Shown here: in pieces, positions 7,454-29,033 of the stretch
Numbering within the stretch: the first letter of the stretch is position 1
Layout of the letters: each line of letters opens with the position of its first letter
Assembly (NCBI GenBank): GCA_964497535.1
Contig: CAZCCG010000001.1
Location: 130,688-194,687 of the forward strand
Length of the DNA: 64,000 nucleotides
From: an uncultured Gammaproteobacteria bacterium
GTDB taxonomy: Bacteria; Patescibacteriota; Microgenomatia; Levybacterales; UBA12049
Direction of reading: 5' to 3'
Translations under genes and position numbers: made by a program
The notes under the pieces: generated by a model
Told to the model about the DNA's origin: nothing
The model's input: the letters and a program-made list of their open reading frames with translations, nothing else
The model's database searches: none

Positions 7454-7871
7454 AAGAATACTCAATATCTATACTGATGGTGGTTCTCGGGGAAATCCCG
7501 GTCCTGCTGCATTGGGAGTCTATATCACGGATGAAAATAATGAGATTGTATATCGTCATGGAAAACGCTTGGGAGTAGCAACCAACAATGTTGCCGAATA
7601 TAGTGCTGTTGTTCATGCACTGGAATGGGTGAACAGTTATGTTCCCAAAGAGCCGATTGAAAGAATCCGTGTTTTTATGGATTCTCAACTAGTAGTATCA
7701 CAATTAAACGGGCTGTATAAAGTAAAACATCCGATGATGCGTACTCTTTTGTTTCAAGTTCGGGAACAAGAGGGGAGTTTGAAAATTCCAATTTCTTATA
7801 CCCATATCCCTCGTGAACAAAACAAGCAGGCAGATGCTATGGTAAATCAGGCATTGGATTATAAGATTTGA
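7437..7871 (+). CDS. rnhA: ribonuclease HI
   Basis: ILNIYTDGGSRGNPGPAALGVYI...EYSAVVHALEW...IRVFMDSQLVVSQLNG...HIPREQNKQADAMVNQALD gives the RNase H catalytic DEDD pattern. Confidence 0.8.
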   Translation: MIMATERILNIYTDGGSRGNPGPAALGVYITDENNEIVYRHGKRLGVATNNVAEYSAVVHALEWVNSYVPKEPIERIRVFMDSQLVVSQLNGLYKVKHPMMRTLLFQVREQEGSLKIPISYTHIPREQNKQADAMVNQALDYKI

Positions 7872-7925
7872 TATCTCGTCTTCGTATACAAAAACACTGT
7901 ATAATAATCGGTATAACACTGCCCT

Positions 7926-10631
7926 ATGACTCAGACGCAGCAACAAAAAACTCCGCCGATTCTTATTATTGACAGGCAAGGAATACTGGGTGCCAAGCTT
8001 GCACTTGTTCTGCAGGAGATTACTCCGATTGTTTTTATCTCAGATACGCGGGAATTATTTGAGCATAGAGAGTTTATCAAGCAAATTCATCAGAAAGAAT
8101 ACTGGGATAAAATTCCTCAAATCCCCAATCTCAAGTATTCACATATTTTTGTAGTATATACAAAAGGAGTAGGGGAATTTCTGACCCAATTTCTGAAAAA
8201 AGCAGAATCGGATGGATCACGTATTGTTTTGCTGTTTCCGTTGAGTACATACCGAAAAGAAACAGCGGAAAAGATTATGAATGCGTACCCCACGTGTTCC
8301 ATTATCATTTTCGGAGACCTATTCGCGGAGGAAAAATTAAACACAAATACCATTATCAATCGATATCTGCAAAGTGCTCAAAAACATCTTCGTATTAATG
8401 TCCCCAATGATGGTACTCACAGTACCTATCCTGTATTTTTACCAGATGCCATAGAAGGTATCCTGAAATGTGGTTTCTCACAGGGACAGCATCTGGTATT
8501 TTTGTTTCCCCAGCATCCACCCACGATGCTTTCTCTGGCGCATATGATTCATAAAGCAGAACCGGAGGTAACGATCGATTTTTATCAGGATAAAACACTT
8601 CCTATTCAAAAGCAGGTTGGGGATGAAGGGCGTTATGTTTTGGGTAGCGATTATCCACTTGCCAAACGGATACGGCACGTAGTTGAGGGTTTACATATCT
8701 CCCCTCAAAAAAAAACTATTCTCAAGCATTCTACCAAGAATAGTTCCCTACAGGATTCTCCAAAAGCAGGTCCTAAAAAATTGTTGCTCGTTCTGGGGAT
8801 ATTGTTCGTATTGGCATTGCCTATGTTGGCAACTCTAAGTGGGGTTCTGCTTAGCTTTTTGCTGCTATCATCAGCAAAGCAGGATATCGAGCGGGGAGAC
8901 TTCAAAAAGGCACAATCGGCTGTAAGTGTTGCCGCCCCGCTTCTTGCAGCATCCCAGAAGGCCTCAGCTGTTGTCGTTGCCCAGGCATCTTTAATTGGCC
9001 AAGGAAAGAAAGCCAGGATGTTGTCTCAAACCCTTGAGATAGCGGCAGATTTGGTAGATAGTGTACATTATTCATTGGAGGGAGTAGTGAGTCTCAAAAG
9101 CGTTTTTGCCCAAACAAGCAAAAACCCCAAGTCAGATTTTGTAAATGCGCTGAATTCATTTAAAAATACATTGGAGTTGATGCAGCGTCTCCAAACTCGT
9201 ACTCCGACCTCACCTTTGGATGGATCACTAATTCGTAGTGCTTCACTTTTCGGGCAGAGAATTATCCCCAGTCTGGAGCTGTTGTCTGGTATTTCTGAGG
9301 TATTGCCGCAATTGGTTGGATTCGATGGTCAGAGAAAATATCTACTGCTGTTCCAAAATAATATGGAGCTTCGTCCTGGTGGGGGATTTATTGGTTCCTA
9401 TGGTTTGGTAACACTGAAAAACGGTTTGTTGAAAGAGTTTAGAATTTATGATGTATACGATGCTGATGGACAATTAAAAGCTCATATTGAGCCGTCATTT
9501 CCGGTGAGGCGCTATTTGGGAAATGTACATCTGTATCTTCGTGACAGCAATTTCGATGTTGATTTTCAACAGAATGCCTCAAATGCGGCCAGATTGCTCT
9601 TTGAAGAAAAAGGAGATAAAGTCGATGGGGTAGTAGGAGTTGATGTTTTATTCGTCAAAGAATTACTCTCAGCAATTGGATCCGTATATGTCGCCGATTA
9701 TGATGAGACAATAACCTCGCAGAACCTTTTTCTAAAAGCCGAGACCCATGCAGAGAAGAATTTTTTTGAGGGATCGACCCAAAAGAAGGAGTTTCTGCGC
9801 TCGGTATTTAATGCAATGCGGTTGAAGCTTGAAACCGGCAAGAACCTGCCGTATTTGGCAATCGCAAAAGCAGTACGGAATGCAATTTTGCAAAAGCATA
9901 TCCTTTTTGCGTTTGCTAACCCTACCATACAAAGTCTATTTACCGTTCAGGGGATGTCAGGAGCGCTGTGGGATCAGCGGCCGGATGACCCGCAAGTAAT
10001 AAATGACTTTTTGGGTATTAATGAAGCAAATGTTGGAATAAATAAAGCTAATTATTTTCTCAGCCGTAGAATGAATCAGTCGGTAGGGATTGATACTGAC
10101 GGGAGTATAACGGAGCGAGTGACCGTATCCTATTCTAATGCCAGTAATGGATGGCCTGGCGGGGATTATACGGATTACTTCCGTTTGATTGTTCCGCAAG
10201 GCGCAATACTCGCAGATATTGCAATTGATGATGCTATTGTGACTACAACACCGGCTATTACGGATTTTCTCAGATATGAAGCCAAGAATTTCAAAAAACC
10301 TGACGATCTGGAAATTGAAACACAAAATGAAAATGGCAAAACGCTCTATGGATTTCTTATTACCGTTCCGGCAAAAGGAACGAAAAAAGTGACTGTTTCT
10401 TATACGCTTGCCAAAAAAATTGATCTTTCTCAACCGGTTTTCTCCTATGATCTGATGCTTTTTAAGCAACCGGGAACAGATCAGGATCCCTATACTTTTA
10501 GCCTTTCATATCCTGATGGATTTAAAATTCTACATTCGACTCCTGGGATAGAGAGTCGGATTGGCAATGTTGTTTATACCTCCCCACTGACGACAGATAA
10601 GAATCTTCGTGTCGACTTTACCAAAAAATAG
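7926..10631 (+). CDS. large membrane-anchored protein with a DUF4012-like extracytoplasmic domain
   Basis: 901 aa. An N-terminal cytoplasmic domain of about 285 aa, a single TM (LLLVLGILFVLALPMLATLSGVLLSFLLL), then a large domain containing YLLLFQNNMELRPGGGFIGSYGLVTLKNGLL, the motif I associate with DUF4012. Confidence 0.5.
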   Translation: MTQTQQQKTPPILIIDRQGILGAKLALVLQEITPIVFISDTRELFEHREFIKQIHQKEYWDKIPQIPNLKYSHIFVVYTKGVGEFLTQFLKKAESDGSRIVLLFPLSTYRKETAEKIMNAYPTCSIIIFGDLFAEEKLNTNTIINRYLQSAQKHLRINVPNDGTHSTYPVFLPDAIEGILKCGFSQGQHLVFLFPQHPPTMLSLAHMIHKAEPEVTIDFYQDKTLPIQKQVGDEGRYVLGSDYPLAKRIRHVVEGLHISPQKKTILKHSTKNSSLQDSPKAGPKKLLLVLGILFVLALPMLATLSGVLLSFLLLSSAKQDIERGDFKKAQSAVSVAAPLLAASQKASAVVVAQASLIGQGKKARMLSQTLEIAADLVDSVHYSLEGVVSLKSVFAQTSKNPKSDFVNALNSFKNTLELMQRLQTRTPTSPLDGSLIRSASLFGQRIIPSLELLSGISEVLPQLVGFDGQRKYLLLFQNNMELRPGGGFIGSYGLVTLKNGLLKEFRIYDVYDADGQLKAHIEPSFPVRRYLGNVHLYLRDSNFDVDFQQNASNAARLLFEEKGDKVDGVVGVDVLFVKELLSAIGSVYVADYDETITSQNLFLKAETHAEKNFFEGSTQKKEFLRSVFNAMRLKLETGKNLPYLAIAKAVRNAILQKHILFAFANPTIQSLFTVQGMSGALWDQRPDDPQVINDFLGINEANVGINKANYFLSRRMNQSVGIDTDGSITERVTVSYSNASNGWPGGDYTDYFRLIVPQGAILADIAIDDAIVTTTPAITDFLRYEAKNFKKPDDLEIETQNENGKTLYGFLITVPAKGTKKVTVSYTLAKKIDLSQPVFSYDLMLFKQPGTDQDPYTFSLSYPDGFKILHSTPGIESRIGNVVYTSPLTTDKNLRVDFTKK

Positions 10632-10677: not shown

Positions 10678-12783
10678 ATGGCCAGACATGAGTCAAATTT
10701 TGATATTCGGGCAACGCGGTTCGATCATTTAGCGCAGGATCTTTGCTATGGACTTCCCCAGAAACAAGTAGACGCTCTCGAAGAGGAAACATTACATATG
10801 ATGGGAGAGCGAAAGCCTGAGGTGGAAGCCGAGCCAACCTATTACCTCACTGGGGAGAATTCGCCCTTTTCTACAAAACCTGATATTTCACCAACAGAAC
10901 AAGTACGCAGATTGGCGAAGGGATTATTGGGGACAGAACAAACGCTGTATGAACCGGTAATCCGAGAACAAGAACAACCCGTTGTAGCGGAAACCATACC
11001 TGAGGAAAAGAAAAAAAATCCATGGGAAGAATACTTTGAAGGAAGAGAAAGAACAGATCCGGTCCATTTTCTTGCAGAATTTAAAGCACTGACAAATTTT
11101 TATGAATATCCTGAAACAGGACTGCAGGTATTAAGAGACGTAATTGGGTTTAAGAGATTTAGAAATGACGGGACGATTGAAGGATATGAGCAAAAATTGG
11201 AAGAAGAAGTAAAAAAAGGGCAAACAGAAGCTGCCTCATTTGGAATTGCAAAGATCGGGCACCAAAAGTTTGTATTTGCCGCAACACACTGGGGTTTTAT
11301 GAGAGGTTCTATGGGCAGTGCGGTGGGTGAAGAGCTTGTCATGGCAATGGAGCTTGCCCAGCGGGAAAAATTACCTCTTGTTGCTCTTCATTCATCAGCA
11401 GGGGTACGGCAACAGGAGAATACTGCCGGGTTAATGCAAATGCCAAAGCTAGCAGATGAACTTCAAGAGTTTGAGGAACAACTAGCGGAAAGAAATATTC
11501 CTTATATTTCTATTTTGTGTGAATGTTTTGGCGGATTATCAGCAAGTATAGCAACTGGGGATATAACAATCGGAGTAAAAGGTACCCGGTATGGGTTTGC
11601 GGGTCCTGAGCCAATCCAGGAATATCAAGGACCAACGAAGCCACCGGTTACATGGGCTGATCAAAGTGTTGAAAGACATCTCGCTGAAGGGAATATCGAT
11701 TTGTTAGTAGACAATCCTAAAGACCTTCAAGAGAGGTTGAGAGTATTATTTGCTTTGCTTCGAAATAAAAAACGAAATAATGAAAAAACTAAGACTACTA
11801 TACCACCAATAGCTGAGGGAAAGATTATCCGTCATATTCCGGAACCAGGATTTTATGCCCCCGATCAATTGGTCCGGCTAAATACCATAGAACCTATTGT
11901 TGATGAAGCACCGGTAAGAGAACGCACTCTTTTCCAAACGTCCGAGGCTTTAAATTTTGATCCCAATAGACCAGAATTTCAGGATATTTTACAGATGGGA
12001 GTACCAGATTTTTTTCCGCTGTATATGGGCTGGAAACTTCCCAATGAGGAGCATAATATGTTGCACTATCCGCCAATAGCAGCAGCAATCGGGAGGCTGG
12101 GGGATCAAACGGTCATGCTTATCGGGAACATGCCTCAGTATTATGAAGATGCAGGTAATGTAAGAAAGTTACCGTCAAGCCCAGATGTTAAAAATATACA
12201 ACGGATGAATCGGCTCTATAGACTAGCAGAAAAGCTGGGCTTAGATTGTGTTGTATTTTGTAATACTCCGGGAGCAAAACCAACATTAGCACAAGAATAT
12301 TTAGGCATGCCATTTGCTATTCAGGAAGCAATGAAAGCAGGGGGTCGATTCAAAAAAAGATTGATAACAGTAATCAATGGAAAATTAGGCAGTGGGGGAG
12401 GTTTGGTAACGGCCCCTCGTGGAGATAGAGTGCTCATTACTGAGGATTCATTTGCCGGAGCTGCAGATTTGCCTTATATGGTTCGTATCGTAAAGAAAAA
12501 TGCTACGCAAGAGGATAAGGAACTTATTGCCTCAAATATGAGAGGAACAGCACATGACCAGAAAGACCTTGAATTTGCCGATGAAGTTATCTATTTTCCC
12601 GCGGAAGGATCTTCCCGACGTCCTGTTGCAGCAGTTGGCGCAATTTGTACAGCAGTCGTAAACGCTTCAGTAACATTAAATGAAAGTTCTTTAGCTCATG
12701 TAAGAAGAGAAAGAAGAAAAAGAATAAGAAGACTCAGGGGGATGCCGTTACGTCATAGAACTACCAAGGAAGAGAAAAACTAG
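10678..12783 (+). CDS. fused acetyl-CoA carboxylase carboxyltransferase (AccD-like N-half plus AccA-like C-half)
   Basis: N-half FMRGSMGSAVGEE...LHSSAGVRQQENTAGLMQMPKL matches AccD (FMGGSMGSVVG...SGGARMQE...SLMQMAK). C-half NTPGAKPTLAQEYLG...INGKLGSGGGLV matches AccA (TPGAYPGVGAEE...IGEGGSGGALA). Also a roughly 130-aa N-terminal extension and a basic C-terminal tail. Confidence 0.65.
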   Translation: MARHESNFDIRATRFDHLAQDLCYGLPQKQVDALEEETLHMMGERKPEVEAEPTYYLTGENSPFSTKPDISPTEQVRRLAKGLLGTEQTLYEPVIREQEQPVVAETIPEEKKKNPWEEYFEGRERTDPVHFLAEFKALTNFYEYPETGLQVLRDVIGFKRFRNDGTIEGYEQKLEEEVKKGQTEAASFGIAKIGHQKFVFAATHWGFMRGSMGSAVGEELVMAMELAQREKLPLVALHSSAGVRQQENTAGLMQMPKLADELQEFEEQLAERNIPYISILCECFGGLSASIATGDITIGVKGTRYGFAGPEPIQEYQGPTKPPVTWADQSVERHLAEGNIDLLVDNPKDLQERLRVLFALLRNKKRNNEKTKTTIPPIAEGKIIRHIPEPGFYAPDQLVRLNTIEPIVDEAPVRERTLFQTSEALNFDPNRPEFQDILQMGVPDFFPLYMGWKLPNEEHNMLHYPPIAAAIGRLGDQTVMLIGNMPQYYEDAGNVRKLPSSPDVKNIQRMNRLYRLAEKLGLDCVVFCNTPGAKPTLAQEYLGMPFAIQEAMKAGGRFKKRLITVINGKLGSGGGLVTAPRGDRVLITEDSFAGAADLPYMVRIVKKNATQEDKELIASNMRGTAHDQKDLEFADEVIYFPAEGSSRRPVAAVGAICTAVVNASVTLNESSLAHVRRERRKRIRRLRGMPLRHRTTKEEKN

Positions 12784-15273: not shown

Positions 15274-16341
15274 TTATATTACGAGATGGGATGCTCCCAG
15301 GATCGGGCTATTTTCAATTTCAACTAAATCAATCGTATGGTTTGTTAATTGTGGAAGGAGTGCATCAACCCGTTTTTTATATGACGTATCCCAGAAAAAA
15401 CTGCCGTCCATAACAAATATCATATCTTTTTGTCTAAACTCCGTTATTGCCGCCAGTTGGGCACAGATATAGCCTGCGGATCGATCGAGGAGTTCATTTG
15501 CAAGGTTGGATAGTTGCGGTATATGTTGTTGGGAAATATTTTTTAACTCAAGCGTTGAAGTAAGCGGTTGAAAAGAAACACCCTTTTTTTGAATAATGAG
15601 ATTAAAATGTCTATATAAATAGGCACCCGTTATTTCTTTCTCAAATAAAGCGGATTGAGGAAGTGTCGATTCCTGATCAATTTGTTTTCCTTCTTCACTT
15701 TGAGTGAATTTATCAAAGCTATTTGATTCGAGATTTACCAAATGGGTATCATCGATAAAAAACGCAGCATTCATACCGGTTCCCAAAATACCGCAGGCTA
15801 AGGTATCTTTTTTGTATTTTGTTAAGCCGGATAAGAGGAGGCATACGGTATCATTTGCGCAAGAAACAACTATTCTTTGACCACGTTTTTTTAAGAAATA
15901 TTCCGCAATTGTTTTTCCAACTTGTTTGCCCACCAAACCCTTGAATTCATGTTCCTTTGTTCCTCGTATCAATATGCCATCTAAGACATTATTGTCCAGG
16001 ACTGGAGTAAGGGGAACGGCGAAATCCAGCGCTACAACTTTGGTATCAATATGAAGTTTGGTATCCAGATAGTTAAGGAAGACATCAACAGTGTCAAATA
16101 TGGGTTGCATTTTCTCTTCATAACTGAGGGTCTCTATATGATTATTCACTTTTTTTACATGGGCTACTTTGCCCATGCTGCCGCCTACGACAATTACCTG
16201 AAACTCCTGTCCGTCGGTGATAAGCGGTACTGTAGGCAGAGGATTAATAATAAAAGGAAGACTGGTTTTTTTACCAGCTGCCGCATCTTTTAATTCCTGG
16301 ACAAAATTATCCCGGACTGTTTGTAGGATTGCTATATCCAT
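15274..16341 (-). CDS. hexokinase-family sugar kinase
   Basis: Motifs in hexokinase order: VIVVGGSMGKV (phosphate-1), ALDFAVPL (sugar site), ANDTVCLLLSG (NDTVGTL-like), GILGTGMNAAF (GxIxGTGxNxxY), VMDGSFFWDTSYKKRV and a C-terminal ENSPILGASHLV. Confidence 0.6.
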   Translation of the reverse strand: MDIAILQTVRDNFVQELKDAAAGKKTSLPFIINPLPTVPLITDGQEFQVIVVGGSMGKVAHVKKVNNHIETLSYEEKMQPIFDTVDVFLNYLDTKLHIDTKVVALDFAVPLTPVLDNNVLDGILIRGTKEHEFKGLVGKQVGKTIAEYFLKKRGQRIVVSCANDTVCLLLSGLTKYKKDTLACGILGTGMNAAFFIDDTHLVNLESNSFDKFTQSEEGKQIDQESTLPQSALFEKEITGAYLYRHFNLIIQKKGVSFQPLTSTLELKNISQQHIPQLSNLANELLDRSAGYICAQLAAITEFRQKDMIFVMDGSFFWDTSYKKRVDALLPQLTNHTIDLVEIENSPILGASHLVI

Positions 16342-16432
16342 CTATTTATAGTTGCGAACGGTGTAATATACACATATTTCAGGCATGATACCATATTTTC
16401 CAATTGTTGAGATAAGTATATCACGGAATTAT

Positions 16433-17263
16433 TCATATAGTTCTGATTGTTTGGAGTACTTCACCAATCGCGTCATGATACGAGCTATTGGCAACAAATC
16501 CACCATGATCCTGTACAAATTGTTTGTATTCGTCACTCGCGTTGCCAACTGCCGCAACCAGTCCTCCTCTTTCAAGAAGCTGGGATGCGGCATCGATATC
16601 TCGATTATGATCGGCAATAAAAACAGTGGGGGTTGTATGAGGATCGATGGTATGAAGAGAGAGAAGTGTTTGGATGCCTTCTCTTTTGGAAAGTCCCCGG
16701 GGATCTATGTCAATTGCTTTTCCTACATCGATTCTGAAACGATCAGTACAGGCAAGCTCCTCAAGCACCGGTGCCACTTGATGCATTGCGTACTCATGGA
16801 TGTCACACTCTTTTGGGGGTACAATAACAGTTTTTATATATCCCATTCCGGGAAGAAATTGAGCTTCATCTGGTGAAAAAGGAATTGAGGCAACAGCCCC
16901 CTGTTCTTGGAGAGCCTGCCGCAGACGAGGAACATCATGGGATGCATATGTTTTCCATTGTGGGAGAACCGCTTGGGTATTATGTCCTACATCATAGAGT
17001 GATCCTCCACCTTCAGTAATCCATAAACCGTTCTTTTCTCCCAAATAATAAGCAACCGGTTGCATCTCCGAAGGTGGTCTATTGGTAAGTACAGAAACGG
17101 CGCCGCCATTTCGCCGAAAATCCTGCAAGTGCTTGGCCATTTGGACATACGCATCAGGATTAAGGGTATGAAATTGCGGCCATCGTAACACAACTCCATC
17201 AAGATCCAGAATAAGGAATTGTCGTGGTTTTGCTTCTATTTCTGCTGAAGGTCGTTCATGCAT
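16433..17263 (-). CDS. HAD-superfamily (IIB-like) phosphatase
   Basis: Motif I LILDLDGVV near the N-terminus, 276 aa. In an operon with the hexokinase-family gene. Confidence 0.5.
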   Translation of the reverse strand: MHERPSAEIEAKPRQFLILDLDGVVLRWPQFHTLNPDAYVQMAKHLQDFRRNGGAVSVLTNRPPSEMQPVAYYLGEKNGLWITEGGGSLYDVGHNTQAVLPQWKTYASHDVPRLRQALQEQGAVASIPFSPDEAQFLPGMGYIKTVIVPPKECDIHEYAMHQVAPVLEELACTDRFRIDVGKAIDIDPRGLSKREGIQTLLSLHTIDPHTTPTVFIADHNRDIDAASQLLERGGLVAAVGNASDEYKQFVQDHGGFVANSSYHDAIGEVLQTIRTI

Positions 17264-18167
17264 ATAATGCGTATTGTTGGTCTTGAGTAAGAAGACGGGC
17301 GGCAGTGGTTATATCGTCCTGGTCAGGAAGAATACCACCGATCCCAATATGTGTCAAATGGTATATTTCATGAAAATCCTCATGAGAGAGTGATCCTTTG
17401 TGTTTTTCTTCTGCAGCGATGATCCGTAATAAGTCTACATCCTGGGGATTAGGAGCGGATAATAATCGTTCCCGTTGGTCGCCGGTAATATCAATGAGTC
17501 GAAAAGCCTCCATTCCCAAATGAATGCCAATTGCAAACTTAATCCGATCAAACAATATATCTCTTCCTTCAATAGCCCGCAGAAGTTGTGGATAGATAAC
17601 GCGGGCTTGCATCGGAGTGAAGTATCTCTGATCAATAAAATCACGTGACTGCTCCGGGGGAGTAGGCCATTCGCTAATGACGCTTCCGTCTTCTAATTTC
17701 TGGCGGGGAGGCATGGTATCAACATACCACATGGTGCCTGTAGCGTCTTTGCAAAAGTTAGCAGGCGGAGGATCCAGTGAGATAGGAAATCCGGCATCCC
17801 ACACGGTTCTGAAAAGATCCAGGTACTGACTGATATCAGTCAGTACTTCTTCGTTGGTTGTGTTGGGGTCACCAAATGACACCCGCAGATCCGCTCCTGC
17901 CGGAGATACTACTTCAACCAGATTTACCTTTCCGGGATGCCCATTTTTTTCTATGTAATGTCCTTTTGTTTGAGAAACAGGTACTCCTATCTCTGCGGCA
18001 ATTGCCGCAAAGCTTCTCATATGCATCGCAATATCCATTGCATGAGACTGCTCAAATCCATGAGCTTTTTGTCCATATTGCTTCATCAAAAGTTCTGTTC
18101 CTTGGGAGGACATGACAGAAGAGATAACCGAGTGAAATCCTGATACTGTCCTTTGCTCAATTGCCAT
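17256..18167 (-). CDS. hypothetical protein (first gene of the hypothetical/HAD/hexokinase operon)
   Basis: The long ORF extends to 18386 but overlaps the divergent regulator gene. The internal ATG at 18167 (MAIEQRTVSG...) leaves a sensible divergent promoter region. No domain recognized. Confidence 0.4.
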   Translation of the reverse strand: MAIEQRTVSGFHSVISSVMSSQGTELLMKQYGQKAHGFEQSHAMDIAMHMRSFAAIAAEIGVPVSQTKGHYIEKNGHPGKVNLVEVVSPAGADLRVSFGDPNTTNEEVLTDISQYLDLFRTVWDAGFPISLDPPPANFCKDATGTMWYVDTMPPRQKLEDGSVISEWPTPPEQSRDFIDQRYFTPMQARVIYPQLLRAIEGRDILFDRIKFAIGIHLGMEAFRLIDITGDQRERLLSAPNPQDVDLLRIIAAEEKHKGSLSHEDFHEIYHLTHIGIGGILPDQDDITTAARLLTQDQQYALYA

Positions 18168-18281
18168 AACAACTATTCTAAAAGACTTCGTATTGTTGTG
18201 CTTGACGCTTAGGAAACACGGTTCTGACAAAGGGCTGACAACAACCGCATATTGATAACGGGTGGGCAAAACCAGTACAAT

Positions 18282-19616
18282 ATGATGCACCATACTATGG
18301 AAACAGTTAATCTTGAAGCGGAATACCCAATAACATTCCACGAAAAAGAAGCCAGAGAGCTGGGACAGCATCTCAAAAGTCACCACTCAGTAGTTCTGAT
18401 TGGGATGAAGCGCGTAGGAATCAGTAACTTTCTGCGGTTTTTCCTCTATCATAAAGATATTGCCACAACCTACATCGGAGATGGTAAAAAACATCTTTTT
18501 ATTCATGTTGATCTTAATAATCTCGTAGAACGGGAGATACCGGCCTTCTGGACATTGACACTCAAACGGATTGTAGATTCGATTGAAAACACGGATATCC
18601 CGGGTAATATCAAAGATGACATTGAGTCGCTCTTTATGGATAGTATCCAGTCCCAGGATCTGTTTATCACTATTGATAGTGTACGTAAAAGCCTGATGAT
18701 GCTCGTTGAACAAAATATCGAGCCTACCCTCTTTTTTGTTCTTTTTGACCGTATGCAAGATGCTATTACGGTAGAGTTCTTCGCAAATTTACAAGGAATA
18801 CAAGATGCGGTTCATGATCGATTGTCGTATGTATTCACCAGTTTTCGAAGCCTGGATGTTGTTTCTCCGCAAGTATTTACTCGTCCTTCCTTGGTTGTAT
18901 TTTCGCATGATTCATATATCCGACCTGCCAAAAGGGCAGATGTTGAAATTGTTTTTGAAACGCTGCGGCAACAGTATGATTTGGCTGTTTCAGATGAATT
19001 GAGAGAATGGATTTTTGAGCTAGTGGATGGATACATGCGATATTTACATCTGGCGCTAATCCATCTGAATGAGAAAAAGCCGACAGATTTCAAGACAAAA
19101 GAAGAGTTATTCAAGAGCCTTTTGGAAGATGAACGGATTTATTTCCAGTCGGAAGAGCTGTGGGAGAGTTTGAGCCCACAAGAACAAGAAGTGCTGGTAC
19201 AGATTGAGAAAAAGCAGAAAGTTTCAGAAGAGAAAAAAAAGCAGGCAAAATATGTATGGGATACAGGATTTATCTTTGATGGGAAAGGAAAGTGGAATAT
19301 CTTTAGCCCTTTATTTGAGCATTATGTGTCAGAAAAGGTATCAGGACAAAAAAGTGAGGGTATAGTAGCAGGAACCGTTGAATTTACCAAGAAAGAGCAT
19401 TTACTCTTTGATTATCTCAAGAAAAATATCAATGACGTATGCGAGCGGGAGAAAATTATCGAAGCAGTCTGGCCGGAAGTTGAGGCATTGGGGGTTTCAG
19501 ATTGGGCAGTTGATCGACTCGTTGCGCGGGTGAGAAACAAGATGAAAGAGCAGCAAAGCAAGTACGAGATACAAACTATCAAAACCCGGGGGTACAAGCT
19601 CGTTTCTACCGAGTAA
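18282..19616 (+). CDS. transcriptional regulator: N-terminal degenerate P-loop NTPase-like domain plus C-terminal OmpR/PhoB-type winged-helix DNA-binding domain
   Basis: The C-terminal EREKIIEAVWPEVEALGVSDWAVDRLVARVRNKMKE...IQTIKTRGYKLVS is a classic trans_reg_C wHTH. The N-terminus has a Walker-A-like VVLIGMKRVGISNF (Lys replaced by Ile) and Walker-B-like hydrophobic-DE/DR stretches. The ORF-track start at 18252 is a TTG; the first ATG is at 18282. Confidence 0.55.
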   Translation: MMHHTMETVNLEAEYPITFHEKEARELGQHLKSHHSVVLIGMKRVGISNFLRFFLYHKDIATTYIGDGKKHLFIHVDLNNLVEREIPAFWTLTLKRIVDSIENTDIPGNIKDDIESLFMDSIQSQDLFITIDSVRKSLMMLVEQNIEPTLFFVLFDRMQDAITVEFFANLQGIQDAVHDRLSYVFTSFRSLDVVSPQVFTRPSLVVFSHDSYIRPAKRADVEIVFETLRQQYDLAVSDELREWIFELVDGYMRYLHLALIHLNEKKPTDFKTKEELFKSLLEDERIYFQSEELWESLSPQEQEVLVQIEKKQKVSEEKKKQAKYVWDTGFIFDGKGKWNIFSPLFEHYVSEKVSGQKSEGIVAGTVEFTKKEHLLFDYLKKNINDVCEREKIIEAVWPEVEALGVSDWAVDRLVARVRNKMKEQQSKYEIQTIKTRGYKLVSTE

Positions 19617-19659
19617 ATCCTCCACTAACTAGTCATTTTAGCCTCAAAACTCTAAAAAT

Positions 19660-19714
19660 TCGTGAATTATTCGGGAATTGCATTCGGAAATAATTCGGGA
19701 AATTCTCGGGAATT
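19660..19714 (+). promoter_or_regulatory. array of five direct repeats T(T)CG(G/T)GAA(A/T)T at 10-14 bp spacing (candidate operator)
   Basis: Copies begin at 19660 (TCGTGAATT), 19671 (TCGGGAATT), 19685 (TCGGAAATA), 19695 (TCGGGAAAT) and 19706 (TCGGGAATT), i.e. helical-turn periodicity, immediately upstream of promoter P1. Confidence 0.5.
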
Positions 19715-19739
19715 GTAGGCATGAACCTATCCTATAGTC

Positions 19740-19768
19740 TTGACTTGTGGCTACGTTTTTGCTATACT
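19740..19768 (+). promoter_or_regulatory. sigma70-type promoter P1 (TTGACT, 17 bp, TATACT)
   Basis: TTGACT at 19740-19745, a 17-nt spacer, TATACT at 19763-19768, embedded in the conserved context CCTATAGTCTTGACT...GCTATACTTT. Confidence 0.55.
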
Positions 19769-19918
19769 TTTCAGTAGTAAATTTCCCCCCATAAGCGCAT
19801 TTTTTGCTTCTGTGGGATAATTTATTTGGACTTTGAAATAATCAGAATCTTATGGATGCCTTTGTGGGTATATGGATACCTACGGAGGTGTTCATAAGTA
19901 ATAGGAGGGGAGAAGTGC

Positions 19919-20155
19919 ATGAGTCAGATGCAGATGGGATATGTCCCTCCGGATGAAGGTTCCTCGAAAGCCGTCTGCGGATCGTGTTGTACAATTCAGA
20001 ACACGTACTCCGACTACTGCGGAGTAAGCTGGATTAAACAGCATCGTTTGCAAGATGGTTCCTTCTGTCCCGGAGGCAGTAAGTTTCCTAATCTCAACGT
20101 AAGTCTTGTGGGTTTGCTCGTTTCCAAGAGGCTGGAAGGAGAGAGTCATGAGTAG
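19919..20155 (+). CDS. small Cys-rich protein (78 aa), first gene of GC-rich cassette 1
   Basis: Strong RBS AGGAGG 8 nt upstream of the ATG. Sequence MSQMQMGYVPPDEGSSKAVCGSCCTIQNTYSDYCGVSWIKQHRLQDGSFCPGG... has 5 Cys. Its stop overlaps the next ATG (ATGAGTAG), suggesting translational coupling. Confidence 0.4.
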   Translation: MSQMQMGYVPPDEGSSKAVCGSCCTIQNTYSDYCGVSWIKQHRLQDGSFCPGGSKFPNLNVSLVGLLVSKRLEGESHE

Positions 20156-20534
20156 GATACAGCCTGAGATGTCGCAACAGGAGATCGCAGAATTCTGCCG
20201 GGAATGGCAGGCTCACCTTGCTCTCCTGGAGGGCAAGGTCAACCCGGAGTATCTGCTCATCGCGCGTTGCGCGGTAACGCCGGAGAATTTCGGCCGCGAG
20301 CAGGGGCAGCTGAGCCCCATTCGGGAGAATTCTCCCTTCGATCTGTATTTTCTCCTCGTTCCGGCACCGGGGGTGCCGGATGCCTTGCTCATCTGCAGAT
20401 TGCAGGCCGAGCAGGTGCAGGAGGCTCTTGACCAGGAGGATCCTAGCCGCGTGGAGATCGATATCTCCACGGTCGAAGGACGCCTCTTCAAACTCCAGCT
20501 CGAGTTGCTGGAGTTGGGCTATCCGCCCAGGTAG
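20148..20534 (+). CDS. hypothetical acidic protein (129 aa) in very GC-rich DNA, second gene of cassette 1
   Basis: RBS AAGGAGAG 5 nt upstream of the ATG at 20148. MSRIQPEMSQQEIAEFCREWQAHLALLEGKVNPEYLLIARCAVTPENFGREQ... Codon usage (CTG/GCC/GGC/CGC) is unlike the neighbours. The GC-richness also produces long stop-free ORFs in other frames. Confidence 0.45.
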   Translation: MSRIQPEMSQQEIAEFCREWQAHLALLEGKVNPEYLLIARCAVTPENFGREQGQLSPIRENSPFDLYFLLVPAPGVPDALLICRLQAEQVQEALDQEDPSRVEIDISTVEGRLFKLQLELLELGYPPR

Positions 20535-20542
20535 TTTCTCAC

Positions 20543-20576
20543 GCCGCCTTTCCCATCTGGGGGAGGCGGCTTTTTA
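20543..20576 (+). terminator. rho-independent terminator of cassette 1
   Basis: GCCGCCTTTCCC-ATCT-GGGGGAGGCGGC stem-loop followed by TTTTTA. Confidence 0.55.
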
Positions 20577-20590
20577 TGGGAATGAGTCTT

Positions 20591-20621
20591 TCGGGAATAA
20601 ATCGGGAAATCCTCGGGAATT
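20591..20621 (+). promoter_or_regulatory. second array of three TCGGGAA(A/T)T direct repeats at 11-bp spacing (plus a degenerate fourth upstream)
   Basis: Copies begin at 20591, 20602 and 20613. Same motif and spacing as the 19660-19714 array, upstream of promoter P2. Confidence 0.5.
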
Positions 20622-20650
20622 ATATCGTCACAGCACTTTACCCTATAGTA

Positions 20651-20679
20651 TTGCACTTGAGGATAAGATCTGCTATACT
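20651..20679 (+). promoter_or_regulatory. sigma70-type promoter P2 (TTGCAC, 17 bp, TATACT)
   Basis: CCTATAGTATTGCAC...17 nt...GCTATACTTTC, paralogous to P1. Confidence 0.5.
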
Positions 20680-20720
20680 TTCTACGCTAGCCACATTCGC
20701 ATCAATGAAAGGACATATCT

Positions 20721-20891
20721 ATGTCTACATGTGGTACCCCGGCAGACCTGGGATATTATTCCGCCTTGATTAAGGACAAGCAGGAAAAATTGGCGATAAC
20801 AGCTTATCCGCAGGTCAAGCAATGTCTTGACTCTCAATGCCCGAGGTGTACGTGGCTCTTTACCCAGTTGCAGCAGCCAATTAGCTCGTAG
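20721..20891 (+). CDS. small Cys-containing peptide (56 aa), cassette 2
   Basis: MSTCGTPADLGYYSALIKDKQEKLAITAYPQVKQCLDSQCPRCTWLFTQLQQPISS with an AAAGGA RBS about 8 nt upstream. Not in the ORF track because it is under 60 aa. GC-elevated and followed by a hairpin. Confidence 0.3.
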   Translation: MSTCGTPADLGYYSALIKDKQEKLAITAYPQVKQCLDSQCPRCTWLFTQLQQPISS

Positions 20892-20896
20892 CATCC

Positions 20897-20940
20897 TAGC
20901 CGCTTATCCCTTTGGGATAGGCGGCTCATTTACTTTTATA
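20897..20940 (+). terminator. putative terminator hairpin of cassette 2
   Basis: TAGCCGCTTATCCC-TTTG-GGATAGGCGGCT stem-loop (similar in sequence to the cassette 1 terminator) followed by the T-rich stretch TTTACTTTTA. Confidence 0.4.
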
Positions 20941-20983
20941 GCCATCTCTTTATAGCAGCCTCACTTCATGTTACAATGACGCC

Positions 20984-23221
20984 ATGGAAAAAAGTTATAA
21001 TCCCAAAGAAGCAGAAGAAAAAATTTATAAGTTTTGGGAAGAAAAAGGCTACTTCAAATCCAATATTAATAAAAGTAAAAAGCCGTTTACTATTCTCCTT
21101 CCTCCTCCTAATGCAAGCGGTCGCATGCATACAGGGAACGTACTCATGATTGCTATTGAAGATTTGCTAATTCGATGGCATCGGATGAAGGGTGATCCTA
21201 CATTATGGATACCAGGCACTGATCATGCAGGGACTGAAACACAAATTACTTTTGAGCGAGAACTCAAGAAGCAAGGGAAATCACGATTCAATTTCAACCG
21301 GGAAGATTTATATAAGCAGATTTGGAATTTTGTACAAAACAATAGACATGTAATTGAAGACCAAATTAAAGAAATGGGAGCTTCAGTTGATTGGTCTCGT
21401 TATACTTTCACATTGGATGACAAAGTTATCAAGACAGTATATGCGACATTTAAGAAAATGACTGATGATGGGTTGGTATATCGTGGGGAGTACATGGTTA
21501 ATTATTGCCCGAAATGTGGCACAACGTATTCAGATGTTGAAATCTCACATATTGAACGAAAAGACCCGCTGTATTATATGAAATATGGACCGTTTGTCTT
21601 GGCAACCGTTCGACCGGAGACTAAATTTGGAGATACAGCAGTTGCAGTAAATCCGAAAGACAAGAGATACAAAGAATGGATTGGAAAAGAAATCGAAGTT
21701 GAGGGGTTAATTGGCAAAGTGACACTGAAAGTTATTGGGGATGATTATGTTGATCAGAAGTTTGGAACAGGAGTAGTAAAGGTGACTCCGGCTCATGACA
21801 AAAATGATTACGATGCCGGATTGCGACACCATCTTGAGATCCGTCCGGTGATTGATTTAAATGGAAAGCTCAATGAGCGAGCAGGAAAATATGCAGGGCT
21901 GAGTGTATTTGAAGCTCGCAAAAAGGTTGTTGAAGACCTGGAAGAAAAGGGACTTATCGAGAAAATGGATGAAAATTATCTCCATACGATTTCTGTATGC
22001 AAAGCAGGGCATGAAATCGAACCCATGGTTTTACCCAATTGGTTTATTCGAGTTGATGACAAAAAAAAGTCATTAAAGAAACCGGCATATGATGCCGTAA
22101 AGAGCGGACAAGTAAAGATTCTTCCTAAATGGCAGGAGAAACGGTACTTTTCATGGATTGAGGAAATGCGAGATTGGCCGATTTCTCGACAGAATACATG
22201 GGGGATTAGGATCCCTGTTTGGTATTCTTTAGAAAAAAACCCAACACTTCAAGTATCATATTTGAAAAATGATGGTCAGAGGGTCATTCGCAGTGGTGAA
22301 GGAATACTAGAAAAAAATGAATTTGAAGAAGCACAAAAAGGTCTTCAAAAAATCATCGCTCCAATCCAATGTACATCTGAGCTTGAGCCGTCATCTCCAA
22401 AAGAACATTATTTACAAGAAACAGACACTTTTGATACGTGGTTTTCCTCAGGTCAATGGCCCCTGGTGACTCTTGGTTATCCTGACTCTGAAGATTTCAA
22501 ATATTTTTATCCCACTTCGGTTATGGAGACTGGATGGGAAATTATGAGACTGTGGGTTTCTCGCATGATTATGTTCGGGATGTATATGACCGGTAAGCCG
22601 CCATTTGAATATGTATACCTTCATGGTCGTGTTATGGCTCCCGATGGTAGAAAGATGAGTAAGTCATTGGGAAATGTGATTAACCCCGAAGAATACCTCG
22701 ATCAATATGGGGCTGATGCTCTCCGGATGGGGCTTATTTCCGGAACCGCGACAGGACAGGATTTTTCCTTTCCGAAAGACAAAATTTTGGGCTACAAGCA
22801 TTTTGCCAATAAGATTTGGAATATGGCCCGGTTTATGCTCATGATGATAGACGAGTACGGTAAAGAGTTGTCCTTGGTTGAAGATCTTGCCAAAGACCAA
22901 CTTACCACAGAAGATAGGGTAATCCTTTCAGACCTGAATAAGCTGATCAAAGTGGTTGACGCATCTTTGGAGAAGTTCCGCTTTACCGATGCAGCAGAAG
23001 GTATTTATCAATTTATGTGGCATACTCTGGCAGATAAATATATAGAGGAAGTTAAAAAACGGGAAGATAAAGAAGTTGCTCTTTCAGTGTTAAGGCATGT
23101 ATATATGACAAGTTTGACGCTCCTTCATCCTTTTATGCCCTTTGTAACAGAAGCAATTTATCAGCAGATACCAGGGAGAAAAAGTGAATCGATTATGATA
23201 CAAAAATGGCCCTCGGAATAA
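20984..23221 (+). CDS. valS: valine--tRNA ligase (short form, no C-terminal coiled coil)
   Basis: PPPNASGRMHTGNV...LWIPGTDHAGTETQ, the editing-domain motifs (RPETKFGDTAVAVNP, GTGVVKVTPAHDKNDY) and KMSKSLGNVINP. Note that the HIGH signature reads HTGN. Confidence 0.85.
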   Translation: MEKSYNPKEAEEKIYKFWEEKGYFKSNINKSKKPFTILLPPPNASGRMHTGNVLMIAIEDLLIRWHRMKGDPTLWIPGTDHAGTETQITFERELKKQGKSRFNFNREDLYKQIWNFVQNNRHVIEDQIKEMGASVDWSRYTFTLDDKVIKTVYATFKKMTDDGLVYRGEYMVNYCPKCGTTYSDVEISHIERKDPLYYMKYGPFVLATVRPETKFGDTAVAVNPKDKRYKEWIGKEIEVEGLIGKVTLKVIGDDYVDQKFGTGVVKVTPAHDKNDYDAGLRHHLEIRPVIDLNGKLNERAGKYAGLSVFEARKKVVEDLEEKGLIEKMDENYLHTISVCKAGHEIEPMVLPNWFIRVDDKKKSLKKPAYDAVKSGQVKILPKWQEKRYFSWIEEMRDWPISRQNTWGIRIPVWYSLEKNPTLQVSYLKNDGQRVIRSGEGILEKNEFEEAQKGLQKIIAPIQCTSELEPSSPKEHYLQETDTFDTWFSSGQWPLVTLGYPDSEDFKYFYPTSVMETGWEIMRLWVSRMIMFGMYMTGKPPFEYVYLHGRVMAPDGRKMSKSLGNVINPEEYLDQYGADALRMGLISGTATGQDFSFPKDKILGYKHFANKIWNMARFMLMMIDEYGKELSLVEDLAKDQLTTEDRVILSDLNKLIKVVDASLEKFRFTDAAEGIYQFMWHTLADKYIEEVKKREDKEVALSVLRHVYMTSLTLLHPFMPFVTEAIYQQIPGRKSESIMIQKWPSE

Positions 23222-28040: not shown

Positions 28041-28076
28041 AAAGAAAAACCCCTCGCAGCCGAAGCCTTGAGGGGC
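28041..28076 (-). terminator. rho-independent terminator for the minus-strand gene 28086-28847
   Basis: On the minus strand: GCCCCTCAAGG-CTTCGG-CTGCGAGGGG followed by TTTTTCTTT. Confidence 0.5.
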
Positions 28077-28085
28077 GTATGTATA

Positions 28086-28847
28086 CTAGGAGTACTGTTT
28101 CGCCGTCTTGATTTCCTCTAGGCAGAAGGGGCACTCGAGAACATGTCGTCGTACCTCTTCGGAGGCTTTGTTCCAGAAAACCAACATAAGCAGTTCATCT
28201 CGTTCCGGACACAGTTGGTTCGTTTCCTGTAGATGGTTGAATCGGTGACTAGTCGCATGCCGGAACACACGTTCACACTCGACACATGCCAACAATTCTT
28301 CCAGCAAGAACTTGGTCTTGATCCTCTCAAGAGGAAAGATCGAGCCTCTTGAGGTCAACCGGATGAAGTCGAGTGGTACTTGGTAGGCTGCGCGTATTGC
28401 CAGCTTACTATGGGGACATGTCGACTCAATGGCCGGCAAGATCCTCTCATCGATTTCCTCAATCGTTTGAGGAGAGAGCGTTGGGGAGGGAGGTCGTCCC
28501 GGAATGATCAGACGAAGAGTGAACTGAGAGGCTCCTGCCACCCTTTTCCTGAATTGAGCTCTTCTGTGGCTGTGTCCAATGGCTTTCCTGCAGAAAGGAC
28601 TTTCTTCTCCCAGTCGGTAGAGCAGAATCTTTACCATTGTTCCTAAATGCCCAAAGGATGTCATCTCGACAGTGCTTACCGGATGGATCTCCACGTATGC
28701 CGAGAAGTAATTCTCAGTGCCACTGGATGCCAGGCGAGTCATTACAAATTCATTGCTGTCCTCGTATGTTTGGCCGACATCGTACGTCTTGCCTTCCAGT
28801 AGCGGTCGAGCAGCCTCGCAGACCTCGTTCCACGTAAGCGCGACCAT
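28086..28847 (-). CDS. hypothetical Cys/His-rich protein (C-terminal zinc-ribbon-like CxxC...CPFC) in GC-rich DNA
   Basis: 253 aa, visibly GC-rich relative to the neighbours. Upstream on the minus strand there is TTGACA-16nt-TATACT with the same GCTATACTT -10 context as cassettes 1 and 2. C-terminus reads LACVECERVFRHATSHRFNHLQETNQLCPERDELL...HVLECPFCLEE. Confidence 0.45.
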   Translation of the reverse strand: MVALTWNEVCEAARPLLEGKTYDVGQTYEDSNEFVMTRLASSGTENYFSAYVEIHPVSTVEMTSFGHLGTMVKILLYRLGEESPFCRKAIGHSHRRAQFRKRVAGASQFTLRLIIPGRPPSPTLSPQTIEEIDERILPAIESTCPHSKLAIRAAYQVPLDFIRLTSRGSIFPLERIKTKFLLEELLACVECERVFRHATSHRFNHLQETNQLCPERDELLMLVFWNKASEEVRRHVLECPFCLEEIKTAKQYS

Positions 28848-29033
28848 GGGTTGCTCCTTTCAATGTGCTAGGATTTGTCCTGACTGAGAAGTATAGCCTA
28901 TAATATTCATGTGTCAATAGTATTGCCATTAATATTATGATTAAATACCCCTAATAGCCTTAAAAATGGGTTTGTTGACAAAATAATAGGGAGCTATTAC
29001 AATATGAAGTGACGATAAATTCGTCATCAATTT

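Follow-up and report, generated by a model that had tools for sequence, protein, structure and literature searches.

Genes acquired by lateral transfer are usually richer in adenine and thymine (AT) than the genome of their host. OmpR/PhoB-family proteins use direct repeats, with pho-box-like 7-bp repeats, 4-bp spacers and an 11-bp periodicity, and SARP/AfsR-type regulators, which combine an OmpR-type DNA-binding domain with an NTPase, bind heptamer direct repeats with 11-bp spacing. We analysed a stretch of 64,000 nt of contig CAZCCG010000001.1 (positions 130,688 to 194,687), referred to as the window throughout, in which an island rich in guanine and cytosine (GC) lies between the gene of a winged-helix regulator and valS, the gene for valyl-tRNA synthetase; the core of the island is an open reading frame (ORF) that we call ORF B. 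The host is a bacterium of the Levybacteria, within the candidate phyla radiation (CPR), since the named homologs of the regulator are Levybacteria. On balance we lean towards a genuine lineage-specific accessory operon of this Levybacteria genome, with a laterally gained ORF B under a duplicated native module and with GC-richness as a trait of the gene family.

The island belongs to a class that is already known, the laterally acquired ORFan islets. Like other acquired islets and ORFans, ORF B has an atypical composition, is absent from the orthologous, syntenic site, has few homologs and occupies a variable junction. Unlike them, the island is GC-rich in an AT-rich genome, and neither mobility genes nor flanking repeats were found, the only such hallmark in the family being a tyrosine integrase gene adjacent to the homolog on contig L009. 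The homologs on AT-rich contigs are GC islands too, so composition does not point to a donor, and a donor lineage with matching composition was not found. What is unusual is that the ORF B family stays GC-rich and dense in hairpins in AT-rich genomes, and that the cassettes beside valS are linked to a regulator.

Judging from the gene order in relatives, the ancestral state is demonstrably one in which a conserved winged-helix regulator gene lies directly upstream of valS, and two paralogous cassettes have accumulated in the window lineage. In each of them, as predicted from the sequence, an operator and a sigma-70-type promoter precede one or two small ORFs, and a terminator closes the unit. 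Together the two cassettes fill the 1.37 kb between the regulator gene and valS, with the following features:

18297..19616, plus strand: regulator gene, 439 amino acids (aa), OmpR/PhoB-type winged helix at the C-terminus
19660..19712, plus strand: operator 1, five TCGGGAA-like heptamers starting at 19660, 19671, 19684, 19695 and 19706
19740..19768, plus strand: cassette-1 promoter, TTGACT, 17-nt spacer, TGcTATACT
19775..19918, plus strand: predicted 5' leader of about 145 nt, transcription start inferred from the -10 box
19919..20155, plus strand: ORF A, a 78-aa Cys-rich small protein with 5 Cys
20148..20534, plus strand: ORF B, 128 aa plus stop, acidic, core of the GC island
20543..20570, plus strand: intrinsic terminator T1, 12-bp stem (9 G-C pairs), 4-nt loop, TTTTT tail
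20591..20619, plus strand: operator 2, three exact TCGGGAA heptamers with 11-bp spacing
20651..20679, plus strand: cassette-2 promoter, TTGCAC, 17-nt spacer, TGcTATACT
20721..20891, plus strand: ORF C, a 56-aa small protein with 4 Cys, taken from the ORF list
20898..20926, plus strand: hairpin/terminator T2, 13-bp stem (8 G-C pairs), interrupted T tail
20949..20977, plus strand: promoter-like site of valS, from the consensus scan
20984..23221, plus strand: valS, valyl-tRNA synthetase, Pfam tRNA-synt_1 with E=5e-122

First we consider the composition of the island. The window has a mean GC content of 40.6%. Measured over 200 nt at a time, the GC fraction reaches 0.565-0.615 at 20100-20600 versus about 0.40 elsewhere, and a maximal-scoring-segment scan of the 64-kb window ranked segment 19904-20570 (667 nt, 56.5% GC) at the top with a score of 34.0, versus 13.9 for the largest score among 200 shuffles. 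This segment is the strongest compositional anomaly of the window, bounded on the left by the ribosome-binding site of ORF A and on the right by the terminator past ORF B. An earlier note on this DNA had described a GC-rich coding island in an AT-rich genome, and its coordinates proved essentially exact; the codon usage foreign to the host that it reported for 20148-20534 was equally confirmed. ORF B has a GC content of 59.4%, with 0.67, 0.36 and 0.74 at codon positions 1, 2 and 3 (GC1, GC2, GC3), whereas the 51 ORFs of ≥120 codons in the window average 40.9% (standard deviation, sd, 3.9) with a GC3 of 0.36 (sd 0.08). When the same protein was redrawn from the synonymous usage of the host, a GC3 of 0.368±0.041 was expected versus the actual 0.742 (z = 9.2), the maximum in 10,000 simulations was 0.516 and the expected total GC was 46.5%. 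The per-codon host-usage score of ORF B lies 6.7 sd below host genes. About 13 of the roughly 19 extra GC points stem from synonymous choice and about 6 from amino-acid composition; ORF B favours GAG, CAG, CTC/CTG and CCG, while the host favours GAA, CAA, CTT/TTG and GCA/GGA. ORF A (GC 48.9%, GC3 0.53, z = 3.2) and ORF C (GC 49.1%, GC3 0.57, z = 3.3) are milder outliers against host usage.

The long stop-free ORFs in other frames that the earlier note mentioned are present as well, three in number, at 20204-20431 (plus strand), 20380-20769 (plus strand) and 20213-20491 (minus strand), and are side effects of the GC content. An overlapping or antisense second gene as the cause of the GC-richness was considered and rejected: according to the ORF coordinates the relative frame of the alternative ORFs is inconsistent across homologs, and their products are unrelated by eye. 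Enrichment in restriction sites or palindromes, or a synthetic construct, was likewise discarded, with ten 6-bp palindromes in ORF B (p = 0.46 versus synonymous shuffles). Regarding the host-type promoter and ribosome-binding signals that had been placed immediately upstream of the island ORFs, both exist, with AGGAGG read at 19903-19912 before ORF A, the promoter lying about 150 nt from ORF A rather than directly before it. ORF B starts, with its ATG, inside the last codons of ORF A, the two sharing 8 nt (ATGAGTAG).

The two modules are paralogous, as the operator, CCTATAGT.TTG and TGCTATACTTT recur in the same register 907-911 nt apart. Operator 2 is 89% identical to operator 1 over 35 nt, and the heptamers of operator 1 are spaced by 11 bp except for one 13-bp step (19671 to 19684). 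A search of the window with the heptamer pattern gave six matches, five of them within the two operators, at a chance expectation of 0.46, while the triple-heptamer pattern occurs nowhere else in the window. Across four cassettes from two genomes the heptamer core is nearly invariant. The cassette-1 promoter agrees with the consensus at 10 of 12 positions and carries a TG extension; the cassette-2 promoter was found by its paralogy with the former and not by the consensus scan (3/6 in the -35 box). Terminator T2 is related by alignment to the terminator past the cassette ORF of the closest relative, L003. The coding status of ORF C is uncertain; no homolog or family was found for it, and it is unlike ORF A and the L003 ORF. 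In both promoters of the window the element CCTATAGT(C/A)TTG, which contains the palindrome CTATAG, overlaps the -35 box (19726-19745 and 20640-20656); it is absent from the L003 cassette and could represent either an additional regulatory site peculiar to the window or no more than a leftover of the duplication. Tandem modular units with small atypical cargo ORFs next to a fixed platform bring integron cassette arrays to mind. Unlike in those arrays, the units, of which there are just two, come with an operator, promoter and terminator each, neither an attC-like site nor an adjacent integrase was seen, and the neighbours are the regulator gene and valS.

Comparison with relatives places the history of this junction in perspective. 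The regulator gene lies directly upstream of valS in L004, L006, L011, L014, L015, L019, L020 and L026 with a gap of 52-230 bp (eight different relatives, L005 and L007 being second copies of L004 and L006), and in L149 and L150 about 100 bp and 85 bp, respectively, separate the two genes. L013, L016 and L073 have unrelated genes at this place: a glycosyltransferase and a phosphatase-like gene in L013 and L073, in L013 also two small minus-strand ORFs of possible toxin-antitoxin type (by eye), and in L016 a hydrophobic-looking 398-aa ORF. The junction is therefore a recurrent insertion site. In five relatives 3-6 TCGG(G/T)(A/T)A heptamers with 11-bp spacing stand directly upstream of the valS promoter (L006 7313-7341, L011 ~1690-1720, L073 3172-3200, L149 3333-3402 and L150 ~5317-5345). 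A scan of metagenomes with the operator pattern matched at least 120 stretches, with one true regulator locus (L073) among the matches listed. From these sequences we infer that the cassettes of the window carry duplicated copies of the module that precedes valS in relatives; the heptamers before valS would further predict a conserved regulatory link between the regulator and valS in Levybacteria.

The closest relative, L003, has a regulator 79% identical to that of the window and a regulator-valS gap of 909 bp with two copies of the operator. The first copy drives, with a promoter and a terminator, a 65-aa Cys-containing ORF (7473-7670) that is significantly similar to ORF A (z = 6.5 in local alignment, a score that none of 500 shuffles attained) and shares with it PPxEG..CGxC..(~26 residues)..CPG. 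This ORF is the top GC segment of the L003 contig (54.8% versus 39.3%). With a homolog in L003, ORF A is older than the split from that lineage. ORF B was not found in L003, tblastn with ORF B gave no match in any related locus, and ORF B is missing from the syntenic junction in every relative examined, so at the regulator-valS position it is, as far as these loci tell, specific to the window lineage. Regarding the second operator of L003 (7808-7842), no obvious promoter or plus-strand ORF follows it; a 94-aa ORF, hydrophobic by eye, occupies 7839-8123 on the minus strand between this operator and valS. The original valS operator of L003 may have been separated from valS by insertion.

ORF B encodes a real protein of a very rare family without known fold, because it has five homologs with conserved motifs, a coding pattern of differences by codon position, and a confidently predicted core. 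A word-indexed search of 5.8 billion clusters returned only ORF B itself. The exhaustive HMMER search of 1.84 billion representatives of clusters at 50% identity yielded five true homologs with E=2e-32 to 2e-4, namely P0122 (E = 2e-32, 55% identity), P0123 (E = 1e-26), P0124 (E = 5e-21), P0125 (E = 8e-19) and P0127 (E = 2e-4, 35% identity); an additional hit on a repeat protein proved spurious. The alignment of the family (A1) shows the motifs CREWQxHLxxLEGKV, PxNFG.EQGQxxP (PENFGxEQGQxxP) and DALLICRL. Counted by codon position, the homologs differ from one another at 0.63-0.78 of third, 0.46-0.53 of first and 0.30-0.46 of second positions; this order of 3 > 1 > 2 is the signature of coding DNA, and the synonymous sites are saturated. 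AlphaFold2 with the six-sequence alignment gave block means of the predicted local distance difference test (pLDDT) of 84-95 for residues 11-70 and of 75 and 70 for the flanking blocks, with low confidence in the C-terminal third; the single-sequence model was poor. Nothing was found for ORF B at E<=0.001 in Pfam, PHROGs, PADLOC, NCBIfam, the PDB profile search or Foldseek (PDB, BFVD). The protein is acidic with an isoelectric point of 4.5, and the grand averages of hydropathy (GRAVY) of the small proteins are -0.33 and -0.24. ORF A, with a possible C-x2-C...H-x7-C zinc knuckle judging from its sequence, matched no family in Pfam, PADLOC or NCBIfam, and ORFs A, B and C matched no toxin-antitoxin or defence model in these three collections. 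Our best guess, of low confidence, is that the ORF B product is small and cytoplasmic and serves as a binding protein or modulator. As ORF B homologs occur without an ORF A-like partner, it would be able to act without ORF A.

We read the homolog DNA for three of the five family members, on L008, L009 and L010; P0122 and P0123 were left out. L008 has 36.0% GC, and its homolog 53% with a GC3 of 0.54 versus 0.22-0.28 in the neighbours. Similarly, L009 has 35.1% GC and a homolog of 52%, GC3 0.57 versus 0.20-0.45 in the neighbours. On both contigs the top GC segment coincides with the ORF B homolog. L010 is a short contig of 1.5 kb with about 49% GC, on which the homolog has a GC3 of 0.65 and its neighbour 0.55. 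As the homologs on both AT-rich contigs are top GC islands despite synonymous saturation, we infer that GC-richness is mainly a property of the family and not the unameliorated signature of a GC-rich donor. A conserved partner gene was sought and dismissed, the homolog loci sharing ORF B alone and the flanking genes being unrelated. A tyrosine integrase gene (10824-11780, minus strand) adjoins the L009 homolog, and a BrnT/BrnA-like pair (toxin-antitoxin, by eye; 2245-2839) that of L008. The contexts of L008 and L009 suggest accessory or mobile neighbourhoods for the ORF B family. Inverted repeats flanking the ORF B gene were found neither in the window nor in L008 or L009. No ORF B homolog was found in the GTDB representative genomes, IMG/VR, GenBank phages or PLSDB plasmids, and none in JGI metagenome contigs by the patterns used. 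A phage or plasmid origin was discarded, ORF A, the ORF B family and P0127 giving no tblastn or blastn match in the phage and plasmid collections or IMG/VR.

The predicted cassette-1 transcript (19775-20575) is strongly structured, with -360.8 kcal/mol versus -287.6±9.1 for dinucleotide shuffles (z = -8.0). The leader alone folds at -52.8 kcal/mol versus -34.7±3.5 for shuffles (z = -5.2) and contains a near-perfect 23-bp hairpin (~19849-19897) from the repeat TATGGATGCCT/TATGGATACCT; in the predicted fold its CCCCCC (~19785-19790) pairs with the ORF A Shine-Dalgarno sequence. The leader may be a translational control element. A search of Rfam found nothing at gathering score over the full window, nor at E<=1 within 19600-21000. 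The fold of ORF B itself has a z of -5.1 versus dinucleotide shuffles and of -4.3 to -4.9 versus permutations of synonymous codons, which preserve the protein and its codon usage. In the same two tests the homolog of L008 reached -4.05 and -3.07, that of L010 -3.28 and -2.80, and that of L009 about -1 in both; excess mRNA structure is therefore found in three of four family members (ORF B, L008 and L010). Host gene segments (n=27, 387 nt) had a mean z of -0.10 (sd 0.95, minimum -2.63), and two GC-rich control genes, that at 28086-28847 of the window and the L010 neighbour, gave -0.4 to -1.0. When the ORF B gene and its homologs of L008 and L010 were aligned by threading their codons, the consensus energy had a z of -3.6 versus codon-column shuffles, with a structure conservation index of 0.31 at 47% nucleotide identity, and the per-sequence folds show a synonymous G-C to A-T double change in a stem at the PENFG motif. 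The evidence for positional conservation of the ORF B hairpins is weak and suggestive, because several of the stems follow from the protein sequence itself. Selection for hairpins in RNA or single-stranded DNA appears to be linked with part of the GC excess. The strong fold, the pairing with the Shine-Dalgarno sequence and the small proteins recall RNAIII/hld, SgrS/SgrT and type I toxin mRNAs; unlike in those systems, the proteins here are not hydrophobic toxins, no Rfam family matches, and the locus shows no sign of an antisense partner or a role as regulatory RNA.

The regulator matches Pfam Trans_reg_C (PF00486) with E=2.9e-14 at residues 375-450 of a 454-aa ORF starting from TTG 18252; read from ATG 18297, the protein has 439 aa and is 100% identical to P0002. 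NCBIfam models of the PhoB/RppA type and the DNA-binding domains of ArlR, CovR and WalR in the PDB match as well. A receiver domain (Response_reg) was not matched, and the protein is therefore a one-component OmpR-family regulator and not a response regulator. Its N-terminal ~350 aa weakly resemble an AAA/STAND-type ATPase in sequence (AAA_35, E = 0.013). More than 1650 homologs were found, mostly 55-63% identical, the named ones from Candidatus Levybacteria or Patescibacteria, and the regulator is conserved across Levybacteria/Microgenomates. The C-terminal Trans_reg_C winged helix and the putative operators of 3-5 heptamers with 11-bp spacing upstream of a promoter are as in PhoB/OmpR regulons. 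In contrast to these, the regulator lacks a receiver domain and has the weakly AAA/STAND-like N-terminal 350 aa, and the repeats end 34-54 bp upstream of the -10 box instead of replacing the -35 box. The combination of an OmpR-type winged helix with an ATPase-like module and of heptamer direct repeats as putative targets is shared with SARP/AfsR, where it differs in that the winged helix is C-terminal here, the domain order thus being reversed, and in that the taxon is CPR and not Actinobacteria; no SARP model in Pfam or NCBIfam matched the regulator sequence. The regulator probably binds the heptamers and controls the cassettes and, ancestrally, valS.

In the mechanism that we propose, the regulator would bind the heptamer repeats head-to-tail and control a highly structured bicistronic mRNA, in which the ribosome-binding site of ORF A would be partly sequestered and translation of ORF B would be coupled to that of ORF A. 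ORF B would have arrived by lateral transfer and joined the resident regulon when the native module of operator and promoter was duplicated.

The earlier claim of horizontally acquired cargo under native signals is upheld by these results: ORF B is atypical for the host, the signals are those of the duplicated module that precedes valS in relatives, and ORF B is absent from the junction even in L003. The earlier note held that GC-rich homologs at the same place in all close relatives would speak for an ancient resident; none exist in the loci compared, and by this criterion ORF B is not an ancient resident of that position. An improbable account has ORF B as an old resident of the junction that was lost in the sampled relatives and kept its composition by selection. 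ORF A is common to the closest relative, so that cassette 1 predates the split, and the GC-richness of the family has been kept despite deep divergence, as this account would have it; yet at least 10 different relatives have a gap of 52-230 bp and no cassette, three others have unrelated genes there, and the other family members stand in unrelated contexts without common flanking genes. The alternative of the earlier note, an assembly chimera or a contaminant joined to Levybacteria sequence, is hardly conceivable. Apart from the sharp change in composition it could draw on one contig, L147, which crosses the left junction and stops inside ORF B at window position 20330. An exact-sequence look-up of ORF B and the regulator in public assemblies returned contigs assembled per run from SRR9179560, SRR9179562 and SRR9179563 that are 100% identical to window 15297-20330, 18018-20851, 19802-20819 and 18028-19703, and two of them (18018-20851 and 19802-20819) cross both edges of the island. 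With three independent per-run assemblies in full agreement with the window, and both junctions covered by two of these, the island is genuine and correctly assembled. It also begins at a ribosome-binding site and finishes at a proper terminator, ORF B overlaps by 8 nt an ORF A whose homolog sits in the L003 cassette, and copies of the same operator stand on either side.

An unlikely explanation is that ORF B came recently from a GC-rich donor, for example a host bacterium or a phage of that host, and that the donor's signature has not yet ameliorated. It accords with the GC3 of 0.74 versus 0.36 in the host and the preference for CTG/CTC, GAG, CAG and CCG, with the absence of ORF B from relatives at the regulator-valS locus, with the L010 homolog on a contig of about 49% GC beside a GC-rich gene (GC3 0.55) and with the integrase next to the L009 homolog. 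The GC-rich source taxon that the earlier note had in mind did not emerge, however: no homolog turned up in a GC-rich genome, phage or plasmid, neither among the 1.84 billion representatives or 5.8 billion clusters nor among GTDB genomes, phages, plasmids and viral contigs, and GC-rich taxa have been sampled far more densely than CPR. Of the three homologs read as DNA, two form GC islands on contigs of 35-36% GC; such deeply diverged islands would need repeated independent recent acquisitions from an unseen pool. Donor composition also leaves the excess structure relative to synonymous permutations unexplained. A structured non-coding or dual-function RNA as the primary content of the island, with the ORF secondary or spurious, we regard as very improbable. 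The folds of the transcript (z = -8.0), the leader (-5.2) and ORF B (-4.3 to -6.7) and the partial positional conservation are what it would lead one to expect; against it stand protein homology down to E = 2e-32, the conserved motifs, the 3 > 1 > 2 order, the GC1/2/3 periodicity of 0.67/0.36/0.74, the confident AlphaFold2 core and the absence of any Rfam match even at E up to 1. A purely non-coding RNA is ruled out by the homology, the codon-position pattern, the AlphaFold2 model and the lack of Rfam matches, so that at most a dual function could apply. We hold as a speculative and rather doubtful version that the ORF B family is small and mobile, that selection for a densely hairpinned RNA or single-stranded DNA actively keeps it GC-rich in the AT-rich genomes where it occurs, and that in this lineage it was captured by a regulator-linked cassette platform (operator, promoter, cargo, terminator) that duplicates, and exchanges small foreign cargo next to valS; ORF B could then be a dual-function gene for structured RNA and protein, or an mRNA of extreme stability.

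Several points weigh against the accessory operon with laterally gained ORF B and family-wide GC-richness that we favour. The signature of mobility was not found, with no tRNA gene in the window and no integrase next to the island. DNA was available for three homologs only, and that of L009 has no excess structure (z ~-1); L010, with its contig of about 49% GC, could be a moderately GC-rich reservoir. Some conserved hairpins follow of necessity from the encoded residues, such as TGCC...GGCA from Cys...Trp-Gln. With one close relative at hand, it is possible that ORF B was lost in the L003 lineage rather than gained here. Binding by the regulator, transcription, translation and function of the cassette are predictions, and the cassette-1 promoter is already near consensus, so that the regulation could be activation or repression.

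The locus shows, in a clean case with clear boundaries, how a foreign gene is added to a minimal CPR genome. ORF B would have been wired into an existing regulon by a copied native operator-promoter and not by signals that it brought along. Its case also illustrates that compositional atypicality need not indicate a donor; genome-island predictors and amelioration-clock arguments would be misled by genes like ORF B. Transcriptional regulation in CPR is poorly characterised, and the link between the regulator and valS in Levybacteria is a testable prediction.

Regarding other parts of the window, the runner-up GC segment is located at 28050-28857 (51.9% GC, score 14.7). It holds a 253-aa ORF (28086-28847, minus strand, GC3 0.57) just downstream of ruvB, with the most atypical codon usage among the 'host' genes, an mRNA without excess folding and no match in Pfam, NCBIfam or PADLOC. 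Divergent from the regulator gene lies a 376-aa ORF (17256-18386, minus strand), locally GC-rich at 17642-17905 (53% GC) and again without match in Pfam, NCBIfam or PADLOC; its N-terminal extension overlaps the region upstream of the regulator, and its true start is therefore probably further in. L003 has a 440-aa unannotated gene at the equivalent position. Finally, Val-rich leader ORFs (MIKQVVVVVVAS, MLQKRVVVVVVSQ and MIKKLVVVVVALS) are found just before valS in L019 (6330-6368), L020 (6329-6370) and L016 (2080-2121), followed in L019 and L020 by a GC hairpin and a T run. By their sequence, some lineages seem to attenuate valS through a leader peptide in the classical manner, with the TCGGGAA operator in its place in others.

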